From NCBI GenBank assembly GCA_052171195.1, contig JBQMZB010000001.1, positions 336,734 to 400,733 on the forward strand: 64,000 nucleotides of DNA. The letters run 5' to 3'. Positions 2,489 to 37,254 of the stretch are shown here, one piece after another. The stretch comes from Bacillales bacterium (GTDB taxonomy: Bacteria; Bacillota_I; Bacilli_A; RFN20; CAG-826). Every line of letters starts with the position of its first letter. Position 1 is the first letter of the stretch. Below the pieces are notes generated by a model, which saw only the letters and a list, made by a program, of their open reading frames with translations, was not told the DNA's origin and did no database searches. Both the position numbers and the translations under genes were made by a program.

Positions 2489-3616
2489 ATGAAAAAAATA
2501 TATTGGTTTGTAAATCAATTTTATAAAGTAGGCGGAAGTGAAATTGTAAGCCTTAATGATATTAATATTTTAGCAAATGACTATGAAATTAATGTAGTTT
2601 TATTATCTAGTGATGATATTAATTATGACCAATATAAAATAAAATATAATCTAAATATTACTAGATTAAATATTTCCCCATTAATAATAAGAAATGAAGA
2701 TTACCTTAAAAAATCATCATTATTAACTAAAATAAAAGTATATTTTAAAGTATCTAATTTTATTTTGTTTAAGAAATTTAAATATCGTAGAATGATTAAA
2801 AAAATGGTTAATAAAGAAGATATATTAATTTATTCATCACCATTTAGTTATATGATTGCTCCAAAAAAATATAACAATATTTTTCATTTTCACTATAATT
2901 CTATATATCTTAATAAATTTTTAAATAGAGTAGTAATTAATTTTCTAGCTAATAAACCAAAATTAAAAATCGTGTTAACAAAAGAGACTAAAGAAAAATA
3001 TAAACATAATAAAAAAGAATTAATTGAATATATCTATAATCCTTCTAGAGTTATGCAAGTCGAAAATTTTGATGTTGAAGAAAAACCGGAATTATTATTT
3101 TTTGCAAGATATGAAAAACAAAAAAGACCATTGGTTGCTATAGAAACATTGATTTTATTATCTCATTATGATCCATATTTTAAATGTCATTTTTATGGCG
3201 GAGGATATTATTATAAAGAAATGGTGAAAATAGTTAAAGATAATAAATTAGAAAATAATATTATTATTCATAACGGATTTGTAAATCCAGACAAGATATT
3301 AACTGGTAATAAAATTCTAATTATGACATCCTTATTTGAAGGTTTCCCTTTGAATATAATTGAAACAAGTTCAAGATCGATCCCAACAGTATTGATGAAT
3401 TATGGGGATGGAGCAAATGAACTAGTAATTAACAATAAAACAGGCATAATTGTACCTCAAAACGATAAAGAAAGTATGGCAAACGCCCTATATAAAGTGC
3501 TTCACGATAAAAAATTATTATTGGATTTAAAAATTAATGCCTTCGAGCATAGTTTAAAATTTAGTGAAAGTGAAATAAGAAAATCTTGGTTAAAAATTTT
3601 AAAAAACCTTGATTAG
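2489..3616 (+). CDS. Glycosyltransferase family 4 (GT-B, group 1)
   Basis: C-terminal 'FEGFPLNIIETSSRSIPTV' is an EX7E-type motif. The listed ORF starts at a TTG at 2477. The ATG at 2489 lies just after the aminotransferase stop. Confidence 0.6.
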   Translation: MKKIYWFVNQFYKVGGSEIVSLNDINILANDYEINVVLLSSDDINYDQYKIKYNLNITRLNISPLIIRNEDYLKKSSLLTKIKVYFKVSNFILFKKFKYRRMIKKMVNKEDILIYSSPFSYMIAPKKYNNIFHFHYNSIYLNKFLNRVVINFLANKPKLKIVLTKETKEKYKHNKKELIEYIYNPSRVMQVENFDVEEKPELLFFARYEKQKRPLVAIETLILLSHYDPYFKCHFYGGGYYYKEMVKIVKDNKLENNIIIHNGFVNPDKILTGNKILIMTSLFEGFPLNIIETSSRSIPTVLMNYGDGANELVINNKTGIIVPQNDKESMANALYKVLHDKKLLLDLKINAFEHSLKFSESEIRKSWLKILKNLD

Positions 3617-3818
3617 TTGTCATTATTTTGAATTTTAAAAAATATTTAAAAAAAGTCATTTTTTTGGTTGCTTTATTATATGAATAAGTATAAAATATTA
3701 AAAGCTATAAATGTATTGATTTGCGACATTGCTGATACACCAACAGGCGTTGTCATGAGTAGGGCATCAGGTAAGTCGTAATGAACATTGAGGCCTGTCA
3801 TTTGAAAGGAGAATATTC
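3617..3818 (+). promoter_or_regulatory. S10-operon promoter (TTGCTT ... TATAAAAT) plus a roughly 110-nt GC-enriched structured 5' leader ending in AAAGGAG SD
   Basis: There is a -35-like TTGCTT (~3667) and an extended -10 (~3690). The leader 3720-3810 is far more GC-rich than its surroundings and has complementary segments (ACAGGC...GCCTGT). Confidence 0.4.
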
Positions 3819-4130
3819 ATGGCAAACGTTAAAAAGATTAGAGTTCGTTTACAAGCTTATGATCACAAAATCTTGGATTTAGCAGTAGATAAGATTGTTA
3901 ACGCAATTCAAAAAACAGGTGCAAAAGTAGTCGGACCTATTCCACTTCCAACGGAAAAACAAGTCTACACAATATTAAGAGCTGTCTTTAAATATAAAGA
4001 TAGTAGAGAACAATTTGAGATTAGAACACATAAGAGAATTATCGATATCACTAATCCACAAAGTTCAACCGTTGAAGCTTTAAGAAAATTAGATCTTCCA
4101 AGCGGTATTGATATCGATATTAAGTTATAG
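3819..4130 (+). CDS. rpsJ: 30S ribosomal protein S10
   Basis: 103 aa with the canonical S10 sequence (RIRLKAYD..-like), the first gene of the S10 operon, with an AGGAGA SD. Confidence 0.95.
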
Positions 4131-4141
4131 GAGGTAGGACA

Positions 4142-5029
4142 ATGAAAAGTATCATCGGTAGAAAAATCGGTATGACCGAAGTTTATGCAGAAGATGGCAC
4201 TATGTATGCTGTTACTGTTGTAGAAGTCTTACCAAACGTTGTTACCCAAAAGAAAACAATTGAAAAAGATGGTTATGAAGCTTTGCAAGTTGGTTATGAA
4301 GATAAAAAAGAAAAAAATGTCAACAAACCAATGAAGGGAATTTATGAAAAAGCTAAAGTTTCTCCAAAACAACATCTTTATGAATTAAAAGGTGATGAAT
4401 TATCACAATATGAAGTTGGTCAAGAAATTACAGTTGATATCTTCAACCAAGGCGATGTCGTTGATGTTATTGGACATAGTAAAGGTAGAGGATTTGCTGG
4501 TGTTATTAAAAGATGGCATCACCATATTGGACCTAAAGGACACGGTAGTGGTTATCATAGACAATCTGGTTCATTCGCAAATAATGGACGTTGTGTTAAC
4601 CGTGTTATACCTGGTAAAAAAATGGCTGGTCATATGGGAAATGATTCCGCAACAGTTCTTAACACAAGAGTTATTGCTGTTGATAAAGAAAAAAATTGCT
4701 TACTTATCTTAGGTGGTATCCCAGGAAGTAAATTATCAATTGTTAAAATTAGAACCGCTATTAAAGGTATTAAACATCCAGTAGAAATTAAAAATTTATT
4801 AAACCGTGCTGAGTATGATAAAGCAATTGCTGAAAAGAAAGCTGCTGAAGAAGCTGCAAAAGAAGCAAAAAAACAAGAAGAAAGAGCTAAATTAGAAGCT
4901 CAAAAGAAAGCTTTAGAAGAAAAGAAAGCCGAAAAACAAAGAGCTGCTGAAGAAGCAAAGAAAGCTGCTGAAGAAGCTACTAATACAAATAGTGAACCAA
5001 CAGAAACAACTGTTGAAGAAAATAAATAG
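4142..5029 (+). CDS. rplC: 50S ribosomal protein L3 with roughly 80-aa K/A/E-rich C-terminal extension
   Basis: The L3 core reaches about residue 215. The tail 'KAIAEKKAAEEAAKEAKKQEERAK...' is low complexity with imperfectly repeated GCTGCTGAAGAAGC units. Confidence 0.93.
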   Translation: MKSIIGRKIGMTEVYAEDGTMYAVTVVEVLPNVVTQKKTIEKDGYEALQVGYEDKKEKNVNKPMKGIYEKAKVSPKQHLYELKGDELSQYEVGQEITVDIFNQGDVVDVIGHSKGRGFAGVIKRWHHHIGPKGHGSGYHRQSGSFANNGRCVNRVIPGKKMAGHMGNDSATVLNTRVIAVDKEKNCLLILGGIPGSKLSIVKIRTAIKGIKHPVEIKNLLNRAEYDKAIAEKKAAEEAAKEAKKQEERAKLEAQKKALEEKKAEKQRAAEEAKKAAEEATNTNSEPTETTVEENK

Positions 5030-20702: not shown

Positions 20703-22019
20703 ATGGAGAAAAAAATTAGAGAAGATTATATATTTAAAAAGAAGTGTTTATTAATTTTATTATACCTATGTTATATAGATAATTTTGATTATAAATCTTT
20801 ATTATTTAGAAATTTCGGTTTTACATTTGAGGAAGCTTGTAATTTTAAAATTTTTATTAAAAATAATGATAATAATTTTTATAAAGGTCTTATCTATATT
20901 TACGAAGATAATAATGTTATTGATTATTCTTTATTTGATAAAGAAAATAACATTAATATATTTAAGGTAGATAAAGTTAGTCACAAAAATAATTATTACA
21001 AACCTAAATCTGCATTGAATATTTATTTCGATGAATCTAATTTTTTAGCGGTAGGATATTTAAATAATAAGTACACTAAATATTTATTAATTGATGATAC
21101 TGACTCTGTTTTTAAAGAAGAATTATTATTTAAGTTAGCGTATAATAACAATGTTAAGAATGTTAATTCTAGTGCTAATTCATTTATTTTATGGTTGTTA
21201 AGATTTTATTCTTCCAACTTAAATTTTGACTTAGTATTAGGTGCAGGAATTAATTTAGATTATGGCGCTAAAGATTGGCATCAACTAGTAGATGCATTAA
21301 ATCTCAATTTTTATGATGACAATAAAATATCTGTAGATCAAATTAAAAAATATGTCGGCCATGAATTATTTGTCTCTTCAAAGTTAATTAAGACTAACGG
21401 ATTTGATGTATATGATTCATTAAATCAAGAACTATATTTATTTAAAGAAGCTAAATCATTTAATGATTCTAATTCAACTTTATACCATATTGTAGATTTT
21501 ATAGAAAATAGTAATGATAAAGTAAATGTTATTACATATAATTACGATACTAATTTAGAATATTTATTACGTAAAAGAAATATTTTATATAACACAATTT
21601 ACGACAACACATCATTTATTAACAAAGATAACTCCGTTGATATTTTCCATGTTCACGGCTTATTACCTTATAATAAAATGAAAGAGAAAAAATACACTAA
21701 TAGTCTTATTTTCTCTGAAAGCGAATATTTTTATCTATATAATAATCCTTACAGTTGGAATATTAGAAAACAATTACATGATTTTAGTTTTAATTGTTGT
21801 CTTTTTATTGGTATTTCTTTGACTGACCCAAATATGAAACGACTTTTAGAGTTAGCTACAAATTATCTTAAATTTAATTTTATTTTTATAAAGAAAAATA
21901 ACGGGATAAATGAAAAAATTTATCGAGATGTTTCAAATTATTTCTTTACTTATGATCTAATAACTATTTGGATTGACGAATTCGATGAAATTAATGATTG
22001 GTTGCAATTATTAATATAA
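20703..22019 (+). CDS. SIR2_2-family (PF13289-like) NADase-like domain protein with a roughly 170-aa N-terminal domain of unknown function; candidate single-gene phage-defence protein
   Basis: 438 aa. Motifs are 'FDLVLGAGINLDYG' (res 176-188), 'VITYNYDTNLE' (276-286), 'IFHVHG' (314-319) and 'LFIGISLTDPNMKRLL'. No SD, with a -10 TATAAT about 13 nt upstream. Visibly more AT-rich than its neighbours. Confidence 0.65.
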   Translation: MEKKIREDYIFKKKCLLILLYLCYIDNFDYKSLLFRNFGFTFEEACNFKIFIKNNDNNFYKGLIYIYEDNNVIDYSLFDKENNINIFKVDKVSHKNNYYKPKSALNIYFDESNFLAVGYLNNKYTKYLLIDDTDSVFKEELLFKLAYNNNVKNVNSSANSFILWLLRFYSSNLNFDLVLGAGINLDYGAKDWHQLVDALNLNFYDDNKISVDQIKKYVGHELFVSSKLIKTNGFDVYDSLNQELYLFKEAKSFNDSNSTLYHIVDFIENSNDKVNVITYNYDTNLEYLLRKRNILYNTIYDNTSFINKDNSVDIFHVHGLLPYNKMKEKKYTNSLIFSESEYFYLYNNPYSWNIRKQLHDFSFNCCLFIGISLTDPNMKRLLELATNYLKFNFIFIKKNNGINEKIYRDVSNYFFTYDLITIWIDEFDEINDWLQLLI

Positions 22020-22025
22020 TTTATA

Positions 22026-22574
22026 TTAAATAATTACTGAATTTTCTATTTGATTAAATGGATTCTCTTTATTTATATGGTCGTAGAAAAGTACACCTTT
22101 TAAATGGTCGTATTCATGTTGAAATATGATTGCTTCTAATCCATAAAATGTATGTGTTTCTTCTTGTTCGGTTAAAATATTATATGCTTTGAAGGTTATT
22201 TTATTCGATCTATAAACATAACCTGGATGTTCTTTATCAACTGATAAACAACCTTCTCCTGATTGAAGACAAACTTTTTTTACTGATTCTGATATAATTT
22301 TAGGATTTATAAAACCATATTGATGTATTTTATCATTTTCATCTTTATAATAAATCGCTAAAAACATTTCATTAATTCCAATTTGAGGTGCAGCAAGTCC
22401 AACTCCTGGTCTAACATTATTTTCTTCGCTCCATTTATCATCTTGAGATAATTTTAAATATTCAAGCATATCAAGTAGTAATTCTTTATATTTACTGTCT
22501 TTTACGTTTTCAACTTTTTTTGAAGGTTTTCTTAATTCTTTATTGTTATCTTTAACTATCTTAAATAATTTCAT
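22026..22574 (-). CDS. def: Peptide deformylase
   Basis: 'GVGLAAPQIG', 'EGCLSV' and 'HEYDHLKG' are the three PDF motifs. Confidence 0.9.
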   Translation of the reverse strand: MKLFKIVKDNNKELRKPSKKVENVKDSKYKELLLDMLEYLKLSQDDKWSEENNVRPGVGLAAPQIGINEMFLAIYYKDENDKIHQYGFINPKIISESVKKVCLQSGEGCLSVDKEHPGYVYRSNKITFKAYNILTEQEETHTFYGLEAIIFQHEYDHLKGVLFYDHINKENPFNQIENSVII

Positions 22575-24867: not shown

Positions 24868-25258
24868 TAAATTAACCTCCGATTGTATATATACAATGCT
24901 ATAAAAATATACCATTTTTGACCATTTTATTCAAACTTTATTTAAGTTTAATTAATAAAATCTTTTACAATTTGTATTTTATACAAAATATTATTTATTT
25001 TTTTATTAAAAATATTAAAAAATAGATATAAATTTAGAATAAAATAAATGTATAAAAATACACAAAAATATTATAAAAAATTAAGTAAATATCATTGATT
25101 TTGACTTTTTACTTTTTTATAATAAAGATAGTTTTAATAGTTATTAAGATTATTTATTTTATTAATTAATCATCAAGTCTATAATATTTAAAAAATTAAT
25201 AAAATTAACATAATTATAATCTTAATATTAATTTCTTTATATGGAGGGAAAAATAATT

Positions 25259-26368
25259 ATGAAGAAAATTAATTGCTTATTGTTAGGTGCTGCTGCTCTC
25301 TCTACATTAGGTCTTTCTAGTTGTAAACAAAAAGAAGCAGTTACCGATGTTGCTCTTATTACTGATATTGGTAATATTGATGATCACTCTTTTAACCAAG
25401 GTACATGGGAAGGTGTTGTTGAATTTTGTAAAAATAAAAATTATAAACACCAATATTATCGTCCAAGTGAAGATACTGATGAAGCTCGTAAAGCTATGAT
25501 GAAACAAGCCATTGAAGATGGCGCAAAAGTTGTAGTTTTACCAGGTTTCTTATTTGAAACTGCTTGCTATGATATGCAAACAGAATATCCTGATATTAAA
25601 TTTTTATTAATTGATGGAACTCCACACACTCCAGACTACAAAACTTTTACAACAACTTCTAACACAACCAATATTTTATTTAAAGAAGAACAACCTGGAT
25701 ATTTAGCTGGATATGCTGCTGTTAGAGAAGGATTTACTAAAATTGGTTTCTTAGGTGGAATGGCTGTCCCAGCAGTTGTTAGATATGGATTCGGTTATGT
25801 TCAAGGTGCTAATGATGCAGCAAAAGAATTAAATAAAAAAATTGAAATCAAATATGGTTATACTGGTGGATTTGTTGCTACAGATACAGTACAAAGCAAT
25901 GCTTCTAGTTGGTATTCTAGTGGAACCGAAGTAATTTTCAGTTGTGGTGGTTCAATCTATACATCAATTGTAAAAGCTGCAGAAAGTAATAAAGGCAAAG
26001 TTATTGGCGTTGACGTTGACCAAGCTTTAGATAGTAATTTAATTATTACAAGTGCTAAAAAAGAATTAACTTCTAGTGTTGTTGATAGTTTAACAAAATT
26101 AGAAGAAAATGGCGGAATTCTCAATGCTAAATGGCCAGAAACATTAGGTGGTAAAACTCGTGTTTTAGGTGCTAAGGAAGAAATGATTAGTTTAGCACAT
26201 ACAGAAAACAGTTGGAGACTTAAAAATTTCTCAATTGAAGAATATAAAGTCTTATTTAATAAATTAAAAGACGGTTCAATTGTTGTTAATGATAATTCAA
26301 ACGACGATATTAAACCTACAGTTGATACAAATTTAGTTAGTGTAGATTATAACGCTTACGCTGGTTAA
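25259..26368 (+). CDS. BMP-family (Med/PnrA/TmpC-like) ABC transporter substrate-binding lipoprotein
   Basis: Signal peptide plus lipobox 'LGLSSC'. GGAGGG SD before the ATG at 25259. It is followed by a two-NBD ATPase and two permeases, a nucleoside-type ABC system. Confidence 0.75.
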   Translation: MKKINCLLLGAAALSTLGLSSCKQKEAVTDVALITDIGNIDDHSFNQGTWEGVVEFCKNKNYKHQYYRPSEDTDEARKAMMKQAIEDGAKVVVLPGFLFETACYDMQTEYPDIKFLLIDGTPHTPDYKTFTTTSNTTNILFKEEQPGYLAGYAAVREGFTKIGFLGGMAVPAVVRYGFGYVQGANDAAKELNKKIEIKYGYTGGFVATDTVQSNASSWYSSGTEVIFSCGGSIYTSIVKAAESNKGKVIGVDVDQALDSNLIITSAKKELTSSVVDSLTKLEENGGILNAKWPETLGGKTRVLGAKEEMISLAHTENSWRLKNFSIEEYKVLFNKLKDGSIVVNDNSNDDIKPTVDTNLVSVDYNAYAG

Positions 26369-26379
26369 TTTTATATTTA

Positions 26380-26413
26380 AAGGTTGTCATTTTGTATGAT
26401 GACAACCTTTTTA
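26380..26413 (+). terminator. Rho-independent terminator or attenuator after the SBP gene
   Basis: AAGGTTGTCAT / ATGACAACCTT 11-bp stem plus a T-run. Confidence 0.75.
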
Positions 26414-26435
26414 AATAAAAAAGGATAGGATAAGA

Positions 26436-28067
26436 ATGAATAATGAAAATATAATTGAGATGAATCATATTACTAAAACATTCCCAGGAATTATAGCTAA
26501 TGATGATATCACTCTTCAGTTAAAAAAAGGTGAAATACACACATTATTAGGTGAAAACGGAGCAGGTAAATCTACATTAATGTCTATTTTATTTGGTCTT
26601 TATAAACCTGATAAAGGCGAGATATTATTTAAAGGTTCTCCGATTAATATTAAAAATCCAAATGATGCAACAAAATATGGAATTGGTATGGTCCATCAGC
26701 ATTTTATGTTGGTAGATGTTTTTACCGGTCTTCAAAATATTGTTTTAGGATATGAAGAATCTAAAGGTGGAGTATTACAATTTAACGAAACGAAAAAGAA
26801 ATTAAAAATACTTCAAGAAAAATATAGTTTATATGTAGATTTAGATAAAAAAATAGAAGATATGACTGTAGGTATGCAACAAAGAGTTGAAATTCTAAAA
26901 ATGTTATATCGTGATAATGAAATTTTAATTTTTGATGAACCAACAGCAGTATTAACTCCAAACGAAATAGAAGGCCTTATAAAAGTTATTAAAACATTAC
27001 AAAAAGAAGGTAAAACAATTTTATTTATTTCGCATAAATTAAACGAAGTAAAAGAAATTAGTGACCGTATAACTGTATTAAGAAAAGGTAAATATATTGG
27101 TACTTATGAAAATAAAAATTTAACTACTGATGATCTAGCTGCCTTGATGGTTGGAAGAAAAGTTAATTTCAAAACTGAAAAAAGACCTGTTCAAAAAGGT
27201 AAAAAGGTTCTAGAAGTAAACCATTTATTTGTTAAAGGAAAAGGGACGAAATTTTTAGCGAAAGATGTTAATTTTTCTGTTAGTCAAGGTGAAATCGTTG
27301 CATTACTTGGGATTGATGGAAATGGTCAAGAAAATGTGGTCGAAGCTATTACAGGATTGACTAAAATATATAATGGTAATATTTTGTTAAATGGCAATGA
27401 TATTACAAAATATAACATAAATAGAAGAAATAAATCTGGAATTTCTCATATTCCTGCTGATAGACATCGTTATGGTTTAGTATTAGATTATAATATGATG
27501 TATAATTTTATTTTAGAAAATTATAAAGATGAAAAATTTTCAAATAAAGGTTTTTTAAAAAATAAACATATTAAAAAATACGGTGAAGTTTTAATTAAAG
27601 AATACGATATAAGAAGTTCAGAAGGTGTTAAAACTATAACAAGATCTATGAGCGGAGGTAACCAACAAAAAGTTATTGTTGCACGTGAAATTGATAGAAA
27701 CAGCGACTTATTAATTGCAGTTCAACCTACAAGAGGATTAGATGTTGGTGCTATTGAAAATATCCATAATCAAATTCAAAAAGTTAAAGAGAGTAAACAT
27801 GCTGTCTTATTAGTGAGTTTAGAACTTGACGAAGTCTTTGATTTAGCAGATAGAATATTAGTAATCTATGAAGGTGAAATTGTTGGTGAATTTAAACCTG
27901 ATGATATCGACTATTCAGAGATTGGTTTATATATGTCCGGAGCTAAAAAAGACAATAAATTTATTTCAGATTACAATATAGATATTAAGGAAAATTTCTT
28001 CAGAAAAATATTAAATAAAACAAAATTATTTAAAGGTAAGAAGAAGGAGACTAACGAAAATGAATAA
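26436..28067 (+). CDS. ABC transporter ATP-binding protein with two fused NBDs (nucleoside/sugar type)
   Basis: 543 aa. Walker A 'GENGAGKST' and a second 'GIDGNGQEN'. Signature-like 'MSGGNQQK'. Confidence 0.85.
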   Translation: MNNENIIEMNHITKTFPGIIANDDITLQLKKGEIHTLLGENGAGKSTLMSILFGLYKPDKGEILFKGSPINIKNPNDATKYGIGMVHQHFMLVDVFTGLQNIVLGYEESKGGVLQFNETKKKLKILQEKYSLYVDLDKKIEDMTVGMQQRVEILKMLYRDNEILIFDEPTAVLTPNEIEGLIKVIKTLQKEGKTILFISHKLNEVKEISDRITVLRKGKYIGTYENKNLTTDDLAALMVGRKVNFKTEKRPVQKGKKVLEVNHLFVKGKGTKFLAKDVNFSVSQGEIVALLGIDGNGQENVVEAITGLTKIYNGNILLNGNDITKYNINRRNKSGISHIPADRHRYGLVLDYNMMYNFILENYKDEKFSNKGFLKNKHIKKYGEVLIKEYDIRSSEGVKTITRSMSGGNQQKVIVAREIDRNSDLLIAVQPTRGLDVGAIENIHNQIQKVKESKHAVLLVSLELDEVFDLADRILVIYEGEIVGEFKPDDIDYSEIGLYMSGAKKDNKFISDYNIDIKENFFRKILNKTKLFKGKKKETNENE

Positions 28068-29160
28068 TATCAATACATTTTTTAAAGAAAAATTTTCTAT
28101 TCGAAAATTATCGCCAATTCTCGCTTCTATTATATGTGCAATTTTTGGTTTATTAATAGGCGCTATTATTATAATTTTTATTAAACCTCAATCTGCGGAT
28201 CGTGGAATATATAATTTATTTTTTGGTGGATTTAAAAATATACCAAAAATATTATATCTAGCTACACCTATTTTATTAACAGGTTTATCTGTCTCGTTTG
28301 CTTATAAATGCGGATTATTTAACATAGGAAGTAGTGGCCAATTTCTAGCCGGTGGATTAGTTACTTTAATCTCCGCTCATATTTTCCATCTTCCATGGTA
28401 TTTATGTGCTTTATTTGCAATTGTCGCAGGTTTTTTATATGGAGTTATTCCTGGTTTATTGAAAGCATATTTTAATGTTCATGAAGTAATTACTTCGATT
28501 ATGTTAAATTGGATTATGTTATTTATAACTAACCTAATTATTTTAAATGTTCCAGGACTTTTAAACCCAAACGAATATAAGAGTCCACATCTTCCTGCTA
28601 ACTCTGTATTACCAAGAATTAATAATAACCCTTATTTAAATATAGGTATATTTATAGCGATTATTTTGTGTATAGTGGTATTTATTGTTATTAATTACAC
28701 TACTTTTGGATATGAATTAAAAGCTTGTGGTTTTAATAAAGATGCTTCTAAATACGCAGGTATTTCTACAACTAAAAATATAGTGTTAGCAATGGCTATA
28801 AGCGGAGCAATAAGTGGATTAGCTGGAGCTTTATATTATTTAGTTGGTACAATAAGATATCAACCTCAAGTTATTTCTGTTCCAGTTCAAGGATTCAATG
28901 GTATACCAGTTGCGTTACTTGCTAACTCTAATCCTATTGGATGTATAGTAACAGCATTCTTTATTTCTTACCTACAAGTTGCAAGCGATTATATGCAACC
29001 TCATTTCGCTAAAGAAAATATTGATTTAGTTATTGCAATTATTATTTATCTCAGTGCTTTCGCACTCATCATTGCAAACTTAATAAATAACCGTAAACAA
29101 ATTAAAGAATGGTTTAATAAAAAACATAAAATACAAAGGAATAAAAAGGAGGTTAAATAA
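28060..29160 (+). CDS. ABC transporter permease (BMP system)
   Basis: 366 aa polytopic protein, translationally coupled to the ATPase. Confidence 0.75.
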   Translation: MNNINTFFKEKFSIRKLSPILASIICAIFGLLIGAIIIIFIKPQSADRGIYNLFFGGFKNIPKILYLATPILLTGLSVSFAYKCGLFNIGSSGQFLAGGLVTLISAHIFHLPWYLCALFAIVAGFLYGVIPGLLKAYFNVHEVITSIMLNWIMLFITNLIILNVPGLLNPNEYKSPHLPANSVLPRINNNPYLNIGIFIAIILCIVVFIVINYTTFGYELKACGFNKDASKYAGISTTKNIVLAMAISGAISGLAGALYYLVGTIRYQPQVISVPVQGFNGIPVALLANSNPIGCIVTAFFISYLQVASDYMQPHFAKENIDLVIAIIIYLSAFALIIANLINNRKQIKEWFNKKHKIQRNKKEVK

Positions 29161-29162
29161 TT

Positions 29163-30164
29163 ATGAGCGGATCATTTGATTATGCACAATTTTTTGCATT
29201 ATTATTTGCCTTATTCTTTCCGTTAACTATTGTTGCGTTTGGAGGAATGTTTAGTGAAAGAAGTGGCATTATCAACCTTGGTTTAGAAGGTATCATGGTA
29301 ATAGGTAGTTTCTTTGGTTGTTTGTTTGTTGCAGCCTTTAATAAAAATATTAATGGTGTTGATACATGTATTGCTCCTGGTTTAGAACAATTAATTGTGT
29401 TTGGTGGAATATTTGTAGCGATGGTATCAGGTGTATTAATGTCCTTATTATTAGCGTTTGCCTGTATTAATTTAAAGGCTAATCAAACAATTGTTGGTAC
29501 ATCATTAAACATATTAGCGCCAGCATTAGGTATTGTATTAATTTGGTCTATTCAATCAAATTTAAATACAACAATTACCATTCCAAGTTGGTGCAGAATA
29601 GGATATAAAATTCCTTTTAGTCCTAATACTTTTCAAGATTTCATATTTTCAAATTTATATTTAACTTCATTTGTAATATTCTTCTTATTTATATTATTAA
29701 CATTTGTTTTTTATAAAACAAAACTAGGTTTAAGATTAAGAGCATGCGGAGAAAATCCTCAAGCAGCTGATAGTGTTGGAATAAATGTTAAGAAAATGAG
29801 ATATATTGGAACGATGATTGGTGGAGGATGCGCTGCTATTGGTGGTATGGGATATGTTTTAATTACGACTGCCGGTTATAAGGTTGAAAGCGGCGTATCT
29901 GGATATGGATTCTTAGCATTAGCTGTTATGATTTTTGGTAACTGGAAACCATTTGGAGTTTTAGGAGCAGGTTTATTCTTTACATTCTTTAGAATCTTGG
30001 CAACTAACTTAAACATAGAGGCCTTAAAACAAATTAATGGTTCTGGACAAATCTATTCAATGATTCCATACATTGTTACAATAATTGTTTTAGTGTTATT
30101 CAGTAAACATAGCCGTGCTCCAAAAGCAGAAGGTATTCCTTATGATAAAGGTGCACGAAGCTAA
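29163..30164 (+). CDS. ABC transporter permease (BMP system, second subunit)
   Basis: 333 aa polytopic protein. Confidence 0.75.
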   Translation: MSGSFDYAQFFALLFALFFPLTIVAFGGMFSERSGIINLGLEGIMVIGSFFGCLFVAAFNKNINGVDTCIAPGLEQLIVFGGIFVAMVSGVLMSLLLAFACINLKANQTIVGTSLNILAPALGIVLIWSIQSNLNTTITIPSWCRIGYKIPFSPNTFQDFIFSNLYLTSFVIFFLFILLTFVFYKTKLGLRLRACGENPQAADSVGINVKKMRYIGTMIGGGCAAIGGMGYVLITTAGYKVESGVSGYGFLALAVMIFGNWKPFGVLGAGLFFTFFRILATNLNIEALKQINGSGQIYSMIPYIVTIIVLVLFSKHSRAPKAEGIPYDKGARS

Positions 30165-31385: not shown

Positions 31386-31475
31386 TGGCGGAGAAAGAGG
31401 GATTTGAACCCTCGCAGGCTATTAACCTCTATCAGTTTTCGAGACCGACCCCTTCAGCCACTTGGGTATTTCTCC
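31386..31475 (-). tRNA. tRNA-Ser (anticodon CGA), 90 nt, CCA encoded
   Basis: The reverse complement folds as a type II tRNA. Acceptor GGAGAAA/TTTCTCC, D-arm CCC..GGG, anticodon loop CT-CGA-AA, long variable arm and T-arm AGGGT-TCAAATC-CCTCT. Confidence 0.85.
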
Positions 31476-31815
31476 TTATTTACTAATTATATAGTAATTT
31501 ATCTTTAATGTTAATTATCTTTATATTTAATAGTCGTAAAATTTTACTAGGAAAAATATTAGTTATTTTTTAGTAGAATTTAAATAAACTCCATTCGATA
31601 ATTTTATAATTATTTTTGTTAAATATACTTAACTTTAACTAAAAATAATAAAAAATTAACTATATTTTATATATTCTTTTTCTTTTTTTAAAAATAGAAT
31701 TAGAAAGAATTATAAATTTATAATTTTCATTAAATTTATTAATTATATACTTATAATTAAATAAAAAAATACAAATAAACTTTATAAATATGGTAAAAAT
31801 GATATTATAATTTAT

Positions 31816-33582
31816 ATGAATATAATAAAAAACTTATTATTTATATATTTAACAAATCTAAAACTCAAAGGTAATATTTTATTTATAACTATCATATTGT
31901 TTATTATATCTGGGTTTATTTTATTAACATTTTTTTTGATGTATTATGAAAAAAAATCAAGACATAACCAAATTTTAAAAATGTATCATTGTGATAGAAT
32001 ATTTGTTATCAATTATAAAGATAAAATTGTTGATTTTTTTGATTATAATAATCTTAAAAAAATATCTACTATACAATTCTTTGATTTTTTAAAGTTTTTC
32101 CCAGAACAAGAACAAAATAATATAAGAGCGTATATTGCTGGTTTGTTAAATTTAGAATTTGATAAGAAAAGTAAAGATTCAGTAATATTAACAAATATTA
32201 AAATTCAATATAAAAAGAAATCAGTAGCCTATCGTACAATTTTAAAATGTAGGTATATCGATAAAACAAATCAAATTCTATATATTGACTCATCGAGGTT
32301 AATGAATTCTCCTAGCTTTAATTTTAAAAGATCGTCTAAAAAAGATATTTATGAAATAAAAGAAATTAAGAAATTATATGATGAAGGAAAATTTAATAAA
32401 GGTAGTTTTTATTTATTAAATTTTACAATGAATAATAAAGTTAATTCTTTTATTAATAATCATGTTTTTAAAATAATTTTAATTGATTCGATATACAAAA
32501 TTACAAATAATAACACTTCGTGTTTCTTTTTAAATGATGATAATTTAGAAATAGGTTTATTAGATAATAGAAATTTTACATCATTAGAAATGTCAACGTT
32601 TCTCTCTAAAATAGTGAAAAGAATTGAAATAGCCTTTGAATTAAATGGTCTTAAAGATTTATATAATTACTATATATGTAGTTCGCTTGTCTGTGATTTA
32701 CCATTATATTACGATGATGCCTATATAACCTTAAGTACTTTCTTAAAAAAATCAAAAGATATTAATAGAGTAATTTCAGTTTATAAGAGTAATGATAAAA
32801 ATATTTTAACAGAATTTAATTTCAAAAATGAAATTAATAAGATTATCAAGCATTCTGAATTTAAAATAAAATATCAACCTATTATTCAGATTAAACCTCA
32901 CGCTATCACCATCAACGGATATTTTGTCTCAATTGATATAAATTCGAAATTTATTAATGATTATAATAGCTTTATTAATTACGTTAAAAATTATTCAATG
33001 TTAGATAATGTATTAACAACGTTGTTAAATAAAATTGTACCTAATTTCGTTAATCAAATTGATGATAAAAATTTAAAACTTATTATCAATTTAGATTTAG
33101 ACTCATTTAAGGTTGTAAAAGATATTCTTCCTAAAATTCATAAAATTAATGATTGTAAATTAGAAATTGTATTAAATTCAAGTGAGATAACCAATATAGA
33201 AGATGAAAATGATGAAATTATTATGATAATTAGAGAATTAAAAAAGAATGGTCATTTTGTTAGTCTTTTAATCAAGAATGATGACTTAATTTTGAAAGAA
33301 AGAATATATCGTATATTTAATAACTATTATGTAGATTCAGCTTTAGAAAATGATCTTAAGGAAGATTCTAGAAGTTTGATTAAAGCTAGTTCATTATTCT
33401 CTTATCTCCAAAAAATGAATCATAAAGTCATTGCCATGAATATTAATTCTTTTTCTGCAATTGAATTATTATTAAATTTGTCTATTAATCATTTCTCAAG
33501 TGTAGTAATATCTAAATCAGAAGAAATGGTTTTACCTTTGGATAATAAGGTAGTTAAAAAATTATTAAATTTAAGAAAGTAG
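31816..33582 (+). CDS. Membrane-anchored protein with a degenerate EAL-like C-terminal domain, possibly preceded by a degenerate GGDEF-like region
   Basis: N-terminal TM helix. Residues about 345-588 carry 'KYQPIIQIKPHAITINGYFVSID' (YQPI present, EAL degenerate), 'LEIVLNSSEI', 'HFVSLLIKNDD' (DDFGTG lost) and 'VIAMNINSF' (EGVE lost). Very AT-rich. Confidence 0.4.
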   Translation: MNIIKNLLFIYLTNLKLKGNILFITIILFIISGFILLTFFLMYYEKKSRHNQILKMYHCDRIFVINYKDKIVDFFDYNNLKKISTIQFFDFLKFFPEQEQNNIRAYIAGLLNLEFDKKSKDSVILTNIKIQYKKKSVAYRTILKCRYIDKTNQILYIDSSRLMNSPSFNFKRSSKKDIYEIKEIKKLYDEGKFNKGSFYLLNFTMNNKVNSFINNHVFKIILIDSIYKITNNNTSCFFLNDDNLEIGLLDNRNFTSLEMSTFLSKIVKRIEIAFELNGLKDLYNYYICSSLVCDLPLYYDDAYITLSTFLKKSKDINRVISVYKSNDKNILTEFNFKNEINKIIKHSEFKIKYQPIIQIKPHAITINGYFVSIDINSKFINDYNSFINYVKNYSMLDNVLTTLLNKIVPNFVNQIDDKNLKLIINLDLDSFKVVKDILPKIHKINDCKLEIVLNSSEITNIEDENDEIIMIIRELKKNGHFVSLLIKNDDLILKERIYRIFNNYYVDSALENDLKEDSRSLIKASSLFSYLQKMNHKVIAMNINSFSAIELLLNLSINHFSSVVISKSEEMVLPLDNKVVKKLLNLRK

Positions 33583-33588
33583 GTTATT

Positions 33589-35028
33589 ATGGATAACAAT
33601 CAACAATTTAAAAATAAAGAAATAACTTCTAGAGATGAAGATTTTTCAAAATGGTATACAGATCTTTGCATTAAAGCCGAATTAATGGATTATAGTGATG
33701 TTAAAGGATTTATTATTTATCGACCTTATGGTTATGCTATTTGGGAAAACATCCAAGAATGGTTAAATAAAGAATTTAAAAAGAATAAAGTTTCTAACGT
33801 TTATTTGCCTTTAGTAATTGCATCTTCGCAATTTCAAAAAGAAAAAGATCATATTAAAGGTTTTGCTCCTGAAACATTAATTGCGACTAAGGCTGGTATA
33901 AATGATATTGAAGATCCTTTAATTATCAGACCAACAAGTGAAGTATTATTTTGTAATCATTATAAAGACATTATTCAATCTTATAGAGATTTACCTAAAA
34001 TTTATAACCAATGGTGTTCTGTTGTTAGATGGGAAAAAACAACAAGACCTTTTTTAAGAGGTAGCGAATTTTTATGGCAGGAAGGACATACAATGCATTC
34101 TTCCGAGGTTGAAGCAAGAGAATTAACTTTAAAAATGCTTGATGTCTACGATCGTTTAGGCAAAGAAGTATTAGCGATACCTTTTATTAAAGGAAGAAAA
34201 ACTGAAAAAGAGAAATTTGCTGGAGCCAAAGAAACTTACTCTATTGAAGCTTTGATGCACGATGGAAAAGCCTTACAATGTGGTACTACTCATTATTTTG
34301 GAAATGATTTTGCTAAAGCATTCGGAATACAATATTTAGATAAAGACGGAGCCTTAAAAACGCCATATCAAACAAGTTGGGGTGTCAGCACACGTTTAAT
34401 TGGCGCAATAATTATGGTTCATGGAGATGATAATGGATTAGTTTTACCTCCTAAAATTGCTCCTACACAAGTTTCTATAATACCTATTCAACAAACTAAA
34501 GAAGGTGTTAGCGCTAAGTGTAAAGAAATTGAATCTATCTTAAATAATAATGATATTAGAACTAGTTTAGATTTATCCGATCACACTCCAGGCTGGAAAT
34601 TTTCTAACGCTGAAATGTTAGGAATTCCATTGAGAATTGAATTAGGACCAAGGGATTTGAAAAATAATCAAGCTGTATTGGTTAGAAGGGTTGATGGCGT
34701 TAAAAGAATTATCAATTTAGATGACATTATTCAAGAAGTTCAAGTTGAGCTTGAAAGCATTCATAGTGTTATGTATAAAAAAGCTCTAGATCATGTTTTA
34801 AATAATATTACTGAAGTGCACACGATTGAAGAGTTAAAAGAAGTTGTTGATAAAGGTGGTTATGCCAAAATGATGTGGGATGGCGATCAAAAATGTGAAG
34901 AAAAGATTAAAGAATTAACCAATGCAACCGCTAGAGTTATACCTTTTGATCAAATAGAATTTGATAAAGAGTGCGCTATTTGTCATAAAAAAGCAAAATA
35001 TGTAGTCTTATTTGCTAAAGCGTATTAA
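33589..35028 (+). CDS. proS: Proline--tRNA ligase (short archaeal/eukaryal-type class II)
   Basis: 479 aa with class II motifs and a C-terminal zinc-binding 'CAICHKKA'. Confidence 0.9.
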   Translation: MDNNQQFKNKEITSRDEDFSKWYTDLCIKAELMDYSDVKGFIIYRPYGYAIWENIQEWLNKEFKKNKVSNVYLPLVIASSQFQKEKDHIKGFAPETLIATKAGINDIEDPLIIRPTSEVLFCNHYKDIIQSYRDLPKIYNQWCSVVRWEKTTRPFLRGSEFLWQEGHTMHSSEVEARELTLKMLDVYDRLGKEVLAIPFIKGRKTEKEKFAGAKETYSIEALMHDGKALQCGTTHYFGNDFAKAFGIQYLDKDGALKTPYQTSWGVSTRLIGAIIMVHGDDNGLVLPPKIAPTQVSIIPIQQTKEGVSAKCKEIESILNNNDIRTSLDLSDHTPGWKFSNAEMLGIPLRIELGPRDLKNNQAVLVRRVDGVKRIINLDDIIQEVQVELESIHSVMYKKALDHVLNNITEVHTIEELKEVVDKGGYAKMMWDGDQKCEEKIKELTNATARVIPFDQIEFDKECAICHKKAKYVVLFAKAY

Positions 35029-35176
35029 TATTCTTATTTCATTTGACGCTTTAATTAAAAATTATATTTATATGCGTATATTATTTGTAATATTAATTCA
35101 ATAATAAAAGAATTAATCATACTTTATTAATTTCTTTATATAAATTATTAATTATTATGATATAATAATATCCGTT

Positions 35177-35264
35177 GGAGAAATACCCAAGTGGTGAAGG
35201 GGACAGTTTGCTAAACTGTTAGGTCGGCAACGGCGCGAGGGTTCGATCCCCTCTTTCTCCGCCA
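35177..35264 (+). tRNA. tRNA-Ser (anticodon GCU), 88 nt, CCA encoded
   Basis: Acceptor GGAGAAA/TTTCTCC, anticodon arm ACAGT-TTGCTAA-ACTGT, long variable arm and T-arm GAGGGTTCGATCCCCTC. Confidence 0.9.
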
Positions 35265-35277
35265 AATTTAAAATTAC

Positions 35278-35300
35278 TCCGAAATTTCGGATTTTTTTTA
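35278..35300 (+). terminator. Rho-independent terminator after tRNA-Ser(GCU)
   Basis: TCCGAAATTTCGGA palindrome plus a T8 run. Confidence 0.8.
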
Positions 35301-35368: not shown

Positions 35369-37254
35369 ATGTCTTTAATTAGTTTTTCTAACGTTACTAA
35401 ATATTACTCCAATGATCTTATTTTGGATCATATTTCTTTTAATATTAATAAAAATGAAAAAGTTGCTTTGATTGGAGATAATGGTACTGGAAAAACTACT
35501 ATTTTAAAAATGATTTTAAATGAAGAAGATATGACTCCAATTTATAATGAAGAAATAAAAGGTAATATAAGCATTTTAAAAAATACAAGGATAGGTTACT
35601 TAAACCAAAATTGTATTGAAGATGTAAATAATACAGTTTATCAAGAACTTTTACTTGTCTTTAAAGATCAAATTGAGCTTAATTTCAATATTGATAAAAT
35701 GTTAGAACTTATAAAATCTAATCCTAATGATTTAGAATTGTTAAACCAATATGAAATTTAACTAATAAATTTAAAGAAAATGGTGGATATGATTTTGAAA
35801 ATAAGATAGATTTTTACTTATCTAAATTTAATTTTCCTTTATCAATTAAAGACAGAAAAATATCTTTATTATCTGGTGGAGAAAAAATGAAGATTGCATT
35901 TATCAAAATTTTATTATTAAATTATGATTTATTGCTTCTTGATGAACCTACAAATCATATCGATTTATTAACTATAGAATGGTTAGAAAACTTTTTAACG
36001 AATTATCAAGGCACTATTTTATTTATTTCACATGATAGATATTTTATTAGCAAATTAGCTACGAAAATATTAGAGTTACAAAATCATAAAATTAATACAT
36101 ATAATTCAAATTACGATACATATTTAAAACTTAAACATGATAAATATGAATTTTTATTAAAAGAATCGATTAAAGAACAAAAATTAATTGAAAAATATCA
36201 AAAATTTATCGAATATTTTATGCCTAAACCAAGATTTGCCTCAAGAGCTAAAGATAGAGTTAAAAAACTTGAAAAATTAAATAATAATTTAACAATCGTA
36301 CCTAATACTTCTAATAATAAAATAAATATAAATTTAATAGGTGAAATTTATGAAAATAAGCAAGTATTAGAATTTAAAGACGTTGAAGTTGGATATAATT
36401 TTTCATTAATAAAACCTTTTTCAATTACTTTATATGGTCAAGATAGATTAGCGATAGTTGGAGAAAATGGAATCGGTAAAACAACTCTAATTAAAACGAT
36501 TCTTAATAAAATACCAATTTTTAAAGGAAGTATCAATACTTTACGAAAAATTAGTATTGGATATATAGATCAAGAAAATCGCTTTGATAATGAGAATCTA
36601 GATGCTTTAACAATCCTAAAAAATAATTTTCCTGAAGAAAAGGAGTCATATTTGAGAGGTATATTAGGCAAGTTTTTATTTAAAGATGATGAAATTTATA
36701 AAAAAGTATGTTTAATGTCAAATGGAGAAAAAACAAGGTTAATTCTTTCTATTATTTCAAATAAAGTAAATGATTTATTAATTTTAGATGAACCTACAAA
36801 CCATTTAGATATTATAAGTAAAGAATGTTTAATTGAAGCTTTAAAAAAATATAAAGGATGTATTATTTTTATATCGCATGATCGTTATTTCATTAATGAG
36901 TTATCTAATAATATTTTGTATTTAGCAAAACATTTTTCTTATATTAATTCTGGTAATTTAGACGATAATTTGGAAAAAATCGAATCTTTAAAAAATAATT
37001 TTAATTCAAAAGACGATAAAATAGAAACAAAGAAAGATTTTAATAAACCTTTAAAAGATAATAAATTATCAAATAATAAAATTATTCAATTACAAAAAGA
37101 ACTTTTTGAGATTGAAAATAAGATTAAAGAAATAGATGATTTATTAAATAAAAATAATCTTGAATATTTCAAATACGATGAACTTAACAAAGAAAAAGAA
37201 ATTCTAGAAAGTAAATATTTTGAAATTATGTTAGTTTTAGAAAATAATATTTAA
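35369..37254 (+). pseudogene. ABC-F family ATPase (Uup/EttA/YdiF-like) split by a 1-nt frameshift in a T-run near 35752-35761
   Basis: ORF1 35369..35761 carries NBD1 Walker A 'GDNGTGKTT'. In the other frame the protein continues from 35755 without a stop, 'NLTNKFKENGGYDFENKIDF...LSGGEKMKIAF...LLLDEPTNHID', then NBD2 'GENGIGKTT', 'MSNGEKTR' and 'LILDEPTNHLD'. One extra T in 'AAATTTAAC' would restore a single ORF of about 628 aa. Confidence 0.7.

Follow-up and report, generated by a model that had tools for sequence, protein, structure and literature searches.

We have analysed a 64,000-nt stretch of DNA from a Bacillales bacterium (GTDB order RFN20, family CAG-826; contig JBQMZB010000001.1 of GenBank assembly GCA_052171195.1, positions 336,734 to 400,733), referred to below as the window, with a focus on one AT-rich open reading frame (ORF), gene X. 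This gene encodes a membrane-anchored protein with degenerate GGDEF and EAL domains and is directly followed by proS, the gene of an archaeal-type prolyl-tRNA synthetase (ProRS), which starts 6 nt past the stop codon of X. The pair is enclosed by two serine tRNA genes (Table 1). The description of the locus given in the original prediction, i.e., a 588-aa ORF with one N-terminal transmembrane (TM) helix, inverted tRNA-Ser(CGA) and tRNA-Ser(GCU) genes around this ORF and proS, near-identical stems in the two tRNAs and a 340-nt AT-rich spacer in front of X, was confirmed throughout. Indeed, the tRNAs share 88% identity and do not differ at all in their acceptor and T stems; such likeness is usual among serine isoacceptors and is expected where a single seryl-tRNA synthetase reads both.

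Table 1. Position of gene X, its domains and the flanking features within the window (position 1 is the first letter of the window)
Feature	Position	Strand	Evidence or remark
tRNA-Ser(CGA), divergent from gene X	31386-31475	-	ARAGORN and Rfam (55.1 bits)
Intergenic divergent spacer, AT-rich, 340 nt, 10.6% GC	31476-31815	n/a	Sequence composition
Gene X ORF, 588 aa	31816-33582	+	ORF list
N-terminal TM helix, aa ~20-44, predicted N-out/C-in	31873-31947	+	Kyte-Doolittle peak 2.9
PAS-fold domain, aa ~58-165	31987-32310	+	
Degenerate GGDEF-like domain, aa ~181-325	32356-32790	+	Family profile against PA0575 and FimX
GGDEF motif position, D242-N-L-E-I246	32539-32553	+	Family profile alignment to PA0575
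Degenerate EAL-like domain, aa ~330-588	32803-33579	+	Pfam EAL, Lmo0131 profile alignment, Foldseek
proS, archaeal-type ProRS, 479 aa	33589-35028	+	Pfam tRNA-synt_2b, HGTP_anticodon, ProRS-C_1
tRNA-Ser(GCU), same orientation as X and proS	35177-35264	+	ARAGORN and Rfam
Terminator-like hairpin and T-run ending the X-proS-tRNA unit	35278-35299	+	TCCGAAATTTCGGA then TTTTTTTT

The GC content of gene X is 20.1%, vs. 26.3% for the window, and because the downstream gene of an ABC-F protein has the same value of 20.1%, X is not a compositional outlier. Long ORFs in the window are open under translation table 11, and the host is therefore not a mycoplasma reading TGA as Trp. Promoter-like hexamers in this AT-rich DNA occur about as often as they do after shuffling (40 vs. 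an expected 37); one promoter-like site matching 11 of 12 positions lies at 31514-31486 (-), by tRNA-Ser(CGA). A search of the spacer and the operon for a T-box or any other Rfam family returned no match at E<=1. Sub-threshold Rfam matches to "Plastid-psbl-rps4 3UTR" on the antisense strand of both tRNA-Ser genes (35211-35261 on the minus and 31389-31435 on the plus strand; 33 and 28 bits vs. a gathering score of 68) can almost certainly be dismissed as artefactual, the model itself containing a tRNA-Ser-like antisense segment.

The architecture of X emerged from combining family profiles with a structural model. An AlphaFold2 model obtained from the family alignment (mean pLDDT, the predicted local distance difference test score, 92.6) comprises a helix at aa 2-57, inside which the TM segment lies, followed by a beta-rich domain, a GGDEF-like and an EAL-like domain within the boundaries listed in Table 1. 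A single N-terminal TM helix is present in all 78 aligned family members, with a mean Lys plus Arg count of 0.9 in the N-terminal tail and 3.9 over the 15 aa past the helix; from this bias, a short tail is predicted to lie outside the cell and all three domains to face the cytoplasm. The beta-rich domain displays the five-stranded antiparallel sheet with flanking helices that defines the PAS fold, and we regard it as a genuine PAS domain, which follows the TM helix, precedes the GGDEF-like domain and had been overlooked in the original sequence-only prediction.

For the C-terminal domain, a retained EAL scaffold had been predicted, and likeness to the EAL fold was found by profile search (below the Pfam cut-off) as well as by structure comparison. 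The X protein matches Pfam EAL (PF00563) with 25.9 bits (E 7.7e-6, under the 31.3-bit cut-off) over profile positions 3-151 of 236, and 40 of the 78 relatives match at E<=0.01 (best 5.5e-16). The EAL-domain profile of the family aligns end to end with Lmo0131 (PDB 4q6j, E 8e-4), and Foldseek superposes the model on dozens of isolated EAL domains (TBD1265, BifA, MucR, YkuI, YahA; E ~1e-10) with TMt values of ~0.65-0.76 (~0.7 overall). On the strength of the model, an EAL TIM-barrel-like fold is present in this domain and a GGDEF fold sits upstream of it. With respect to the latter, X has no match to Pfam GGDEF (PF00990) at E<=10 and only three of the 78 relatives have one (best 4.7e-7); the family profile reaches PA0575 (5m3c, E 5.8e-4) and FimX (4j40, E 1.2e-3), running through their GGDEF domains into the start of EAL. 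The top Foldseek matches in the PDB are DosP (3.6e-18) and a PAS-GGDEF-EAL fragment of RbdA/PA0861 (2.9e-17), followed by MorA, PA0575 and LapD (~1e-14); the GGDEF-EAL tandems (MorA 4rnf, PA0575 5m3c, LapD 3pjw and 6pwk) align over 410-445 columns with E from 1e-17 to 1e-14. The suggestion that FLNDDNLEIGLL ("NDDNLEI") is a remnant of a GGDEF motif also held, as the profile aligns D242-N-L-E-I246 with the GGDEF motif of PA0575 and the model superposes on GGDEF-EAL tandems. Neither PADLOC (no match for X) nor NCBIfam (a negligible 14-bit match to PRK09776) assigned the protein elsewhere.

Retention of the fold contrasts with a thorough loss of the residues that would make it work, which we mapped on Lmo0131 (4q6j) and PA0575 (5m3c) and counted by column in the 78-member alignment. 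As proposed from the first reading of the gene, X keeps YQPI (aa 353-356) and has lost EAL, DDFGTG and EGVE, the positions of which hold FVS, LI and MNIN. The Glu of EAL is replaced in the family by F, L, I or M (F370 in X), the Arg of ExLxR by K, E or other residues (D374), the two Asp of DDFG by L or I (L485, I486), the Lys of KxD by I, F, V or L (Y505), the first Glu of EGVE by T, I, S or V (M541) and the Gln of QG by S (S561); the Gln of YQP, kept in X, is Arg in 49 of 78 members. At the GGDEF motif, the family reads S/D, D/E, N, E and I, and X reads DNLEI; only the Glu is kept (47/78). Of the further EAL-scaffold elements originally listed for X, the KxD-like "YVDSAL" stood, in that D507 aligns with the Asp of KxD. 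The N-loop did not fare as well: N425 aligns with the metal-binding Asn, probably by chance to judge from the sequences, as this column is not visibly conserved in the alignment blocks read by eye. None of 253 full-length relatives contains GG[DE]EF, DDFG, or ExLxR after (Y/F)(Q/R)P, and no RxxD inhibitory site (I-site) before the GGDEF position was seen by eye in X or in the 26 family rows displayed. Because the catalytic motifs are lost, an active diguanylate cyclase or EAL phosphodiesterase can be excluded.

Conservation within the protein is low and unevenly distributed: mean pairwise identity is 27.5% for the EAL-like domain, 24% for PAS and lowest, 18%, for the GGDEF-like domain, and only four columns are at least 90% conserved (F91, G196, Y369 and G556), none of them polar. 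The PAS domain of the family presents neither an invariant His or Cys nor a cofactor motif. Of roughly 97 positions that are well conserved in the family, about 37 hold a different residue in the X protein itself, including W106Y, D502N, P537K, W546F and G556S (family residue first), five strongly conserved sites encoded within ~32131-33483 of the window. These five substitutions follow the direction expected under AT mutational pressure, and extreme AT bias seems to be wearing away even conserved sites.

The family to which X belongs is sizeable. When 1.84 billion cluster representatives were searched exhaustively with HMMER, 159 relatives were obtained at E<=1e-3, including 116 at E<=1e-10 (counted as clusters at 50% identity), nearly all of them 570-610 aa long and collinear end to end, with a best identity to X of 36%. 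Word-indexed homology searches with X, and with the 78-sequence alignment, returned only X itself, because low-complexity words saturate the candidate list, and X as the query of a back-translated scan of GTDB genomes gave no match; the family was also reached by a database search from a GC-balanced relative. Database entries are mostly labelled "hypothetical protein" and occasionally "EAL domain-containing protein" or putative phosphodiesterase, the last of which is almost certainly wrong. One relative sits on a 1.41-Mb contig, and one family member is annotated as Candidatus Enteromonas, which corresponds to UBA733, a GTDB genus of order RFN20 and family CAG-826 whose genomes measure 1.2-1.8 Mb (PMC8035907). 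A literature search on RF39 combined with GGDEF found nothing.

Genomic context provided the second line of evidence. In a ProRS-anchored survey of one genome per GTDB species (80 loci, in which X was then detected by the family hidden Markov model), 34 loci have X immediately in front of proS, and four metagenome contigs bring the number of related loci with this adjacency to 38, with the distance from the X stop to the proS start ranging from -17 to +48 nt. On contigs of relatives at 22-36% identity, X is always directly followed by archaeal-type proS. The 34 X-bearing genomes are metagenome-assembled genomes (MAGs) labelled "Bacilli", "Mollicutes", "Erysipelotrichaceae" or similar, their ProRS is 57-71% identical and their GC content spans 23-60%; loci titled "Oscillospiraceae" (L014) and "bacterium" (L033) carry X as well. 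The tRNA genes are part of the pattern: counted from coordinates, tRNA-Ser(CGA) is found just upstream of X on the opposite strand in 33 of the 34 related loci with enough flank, and tRNA-Ser(GCU) directly downstream of proS (+) in 21, displaced by insertions in 8 more. The upstream gene order def (-), ylbF-like, rsmD, coaD, hypothetical (-), yitT is also common to the window and the contigs of relatives. Outside this group, proS has no X in front of it in Sharpea (L040), in an Acholeplasmatales MAG (L041) and in most other outgroup loci, mostly Clostridia-type MAGs.

Because this four-part synteny recurs in 34 species, the module formed by tRNA-Ser(CGA), the X-proS pair divergent from it and tRNA-Ser(GCU) is ancestral to a clade of uncultured gut Bacilli. 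The best reading of X is that of a fast-evolving but conserved, vertically inherited, lineage-specific core gene of this clade, at least one member of which belongs to GTDB order RFN20. The original prediction had named vertical synteny with proS, together with a recognisable unrelated function, as an outcome that would speak against it: the synteny is there, and no recognisable unrelated function emerged. The 340-nt spacer in the window is unusually long, 3-5 times the length in most of 11 related loci (~67-131 nt in 10 of the 11 computed from coordinates, and 218 nt in L016, whose X has an uncertain start codon), and we found no RNA family, repeat or ORF that would account for the extra length.

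The surroundings of the module are less stable. In the window, a four-gene ABC transporter of Bmp/PnrA type (binding protein, double ATPase and two permeases; 25241-30164, +) lies between the hypothetical gene (-) and yitT, which are adjacent in relatives L003, L005 and L007; these three carry variable genes (P-type ATPase and TetR; GH3 and Fic) inserted between yitT and tRNA-Ser(CGA). Therefore, it is the surroundings of yitT, not the tRNA-X-proS module, that form the plastic part of the region. The near-identical contigs L005 and L006, both from a single relative, are told apart by a small insertion with an rve_3 transposase fragment between yitT and the GH3 gene (at about 3000-4300), showing insertion sequence activity beside, not inside, the conserved module.

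Starting from the architecture, degeneracy, conservation and synteny established above, we propose, with moderate confidence, that X is a pseudoenzyme independent of cyclic di-GMP (c-di-GMP), acting as a PAS-linked membrane scaffold co-transcribed with proS. The protein would cross the membrane once, with its N-terminus outside and a cytoplasmic PAS domain followed by the degenerate GGDEF and EAL domains inside. Sensing or localisation might be the task of the PAS domain or the membrane anchor, and the dead GGDEF-EAL module may serve as a platform for interaction with protein (or RNA), as in CsrD of E. coli. Co-transcription with proS and tRNA-Ser(GCU) would make its expression constitutive. 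Because the Glu and Arg of the EAL motif and the I-site are missing, X would presumably be without canonical c-di-GMP binding. Several observations weigh against this proposal. Three acidic columns remain in the EAL barrel and might yet make up a site for a ligand or metal, namely E/D at column 457 (70/78 members), D at column 502 (67/78, N in X) and D at column 507 (44/78); a Lys occupies the position of the ExLxR Arg in 28 of 78 members; and the linker from PAS to GGDEF is modelled as a loop rather than as a signalling helix, which makes the coupling of PAS to an output less certain. In addition, gene spacing is the sole basis on which X and proS would share a transcript, and the 64-kb window and 521 kb of related flanks in which no diguanylate cyclase motif was matched are a small fraction of each genome.

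These observations give some room to readings in which X still binds a ligand. Degenerate GGDEF-EAL tandems on a membrane anchor are also the architecture of c-di-GMP receptors of the LapD/FimX type, in which case the dead EAL domain (or a GGDEF I-site) of X would bind c-di-GMP and relay this to a membrane-proximal output; the two LapD structures are among the best structural matches, and the family profile matches FimX. We nevertheless consider a receptor of this type rather unlikely, since, among the canonical positions of the EAL site that were tested, all have disappeared but the (Y/F)xP strand, and even this is kept in part only: its Gln has mostly become Arg, a hydrophobic residue replaces the EAL Glu, the Arg of ExLxR is gone (Asp in X) and no RxxD I-site is seen, whereas FimX itself retains FQP and EVLLR; nor does the available sequence, a small sample, hold a diguanylate cyclase motif. 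The initial expectation that such doubly degenerate proteins act as c-di-GMP receptors or scaffolds rather than enzymes thus stands in its non-enzyme part, given the lost catalytic motifs, and is weakened in its receptor half by the loss of the EAL-motif Glu and Arg and of the I-site in the relatives examined. A sensor of a new type, with c-di-AMP, (p)ppGpp, pGpG or a proline- or translation-linked metabolite bound by the barrel remnant or the PAS core, would make use of the acidic columns 457, 502 and 507 and would be in line with PAS and EAL being the best-conserved domains and with the tight and ancient linkage to proS and the tRNA genes; as the PAS domain lacks both a cofactor motif and any invariant His or Cys and none of the four most conserved columns is polar, we find it unlikely. 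More specifically, and improbably in our estimate, the family could be a new housekeeping sensor class of genome-reduced gut Bacilli, its non-c-di-GMP ligand being bound through the acidic cluster or the PAS core and its signal coupled to translation or aminoacylation; such coupling, if real, would account for the ancient grouping of X with proS and two tRNA-Ser genes in an operon.

Two further readings would deprive X of a function or of its ancestry. The sequence identity to X of 18-36% at related loci where ProRS is 57-77% identical, together with the many positions at which X departs from the consensus, might suggest a functionless, decaying relic, a pseudogene in progress. This is highly improbable: X is an intact full-length ORF of constant length and domain order across a clade of 23-60% GC, the family alignment yields an AlphaFold model of high confidence, and its tight coupling to proS has been maintained. 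In view of these conserved intact ORFs, the pseudogene reading was rejected. The bracketing by inverted tRNA-Ser genes, the AT-rich gene and the long spacer had also raised the idea that the tRNA-Ser to tRNA-Ser segment was acquired horizontally by integration at a tRNA gene. We give this next to no credence, since the same four-part module is found in 34 related species (with ProRS at the identity just mentioned), the interval between the tRNAs contains nothing but X and the essential proS, there is no long repeat apart from the inverted homology of the two tRNAs themselves (direct repeats being chance AT-rich matches), and the GC content of X is in line with other weakly constrained genes, such as that of ABC-F. 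No attachment-site-like repeat, integrase or presence/absence polymorphism indicative of an island was found. A tRNA-targeted genomic island is refuted by this synteny, and the view of the tRNA bracket as an integration site is contradicted by the conservation of the tRNA-X-proS-tRNA order in dozens of related species. A false lead is thereby removed: the tRNA bracket reflects ancestral gene order, not an integration scar.

Two other genes of the window deserve mention. The ABC-F gene (two ABC_tran domains and ABC_tran_Xtn; 35369-37254) is split into ORFs of 130 and 455 aa, with the break near 35750-35767; past the break, a frame open from 35755 onwards encodes the rest of the protein (NKFKENGGYDFE...LSGGEK), which fits a loss of 1 nt in the A-run of "gaaattt". 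The split is also present on a Logan contig (L001), and the orthologue in L003 is intact (634 aa); it may be either a real frameshift or pseudogene, or a homopolymer assembly error. Further upstream, a 438-aa ORF (20703-22019, +) just ahead of def (22026-22574, -) contains a SIR2_2 domain (Pfam E 2.4e-13) with weak PADLOC matches to SIR2 and ThsA (E 1e-5 to 9e-5), and the corresponding gene in relative L007 encodes RNase J; this ORF may be a lineage-specific defence-type insertion.

Among the closest known systems is CsrD, which acts without turnover or binding of c-di-GMP. This proteobacterial protein has two TM helices and a HAMP-like linker and targets the small RNAs CsrB and CsrC. The X protein has one TM helix and a PAS domain and is operonic with proS, and its likeness to CsrD is one of architecture. 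Like X, CsrD (YhdA) of E. coli is a degenerate GGDEF-EAL protein, membrane-anchored and with both domains affected (PMC5635695); X shares with it the combination of a membrane anchor and a doubly degenerate GGDEF-EAL module. LapD and FimX, both among the structural or profile matches, resemble X in their dead GGDEF-EAL tandem (and LapD in its membrane anchor), but they bind c-di-GMP via the EAL domain (PDB 6pwk and 4foj are c-di-GMP complexes); the EAL-motif residues QP and ExLxR that FimX keeps are not retained in the X family, in which ExLxR is lost and the Gln mostly replaced by Arg. RbdA/PA0861 and DosP, the best Foldseek matches, share the PAS-GGDEF-EAL fold order; unlike X, they are active enzymes with intact EAL sites, and at 10-13% identity to them X has lost all catalytic residues. 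Lmo0131 of Listeria, a firmicute protein, is the only solved structure reached by the X EAL profile at E<1e-3, over the whole domain, and it carries YQP, EGLVR, N, ExxE, DDFG, KxD, EGVE and QG, of which X has none except YQP and the final Asp.

Overall, dead GGDEF-EAL proteins are already known from CsrD, LapD and FimX, and X represents a new, sequence-isolated family of such proteins. The family combines a complete loss of residues with a cryptic PAS domain, the status of a core gene in a reduced-genome lineage and a conserved operon with proS. Next to the gene of an essential tRNA synthetase, a whole clade of small-genome gut bacteria keeps a c-di-GMP-type signalling protein from which all enzymatic and canonical EAL-motif residues are gone, and nature here offers a clear case of a signalling enzyme that has become a pseudoenzyme. 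These findings merit a correction of annotation and will come as no surprise to specialists.

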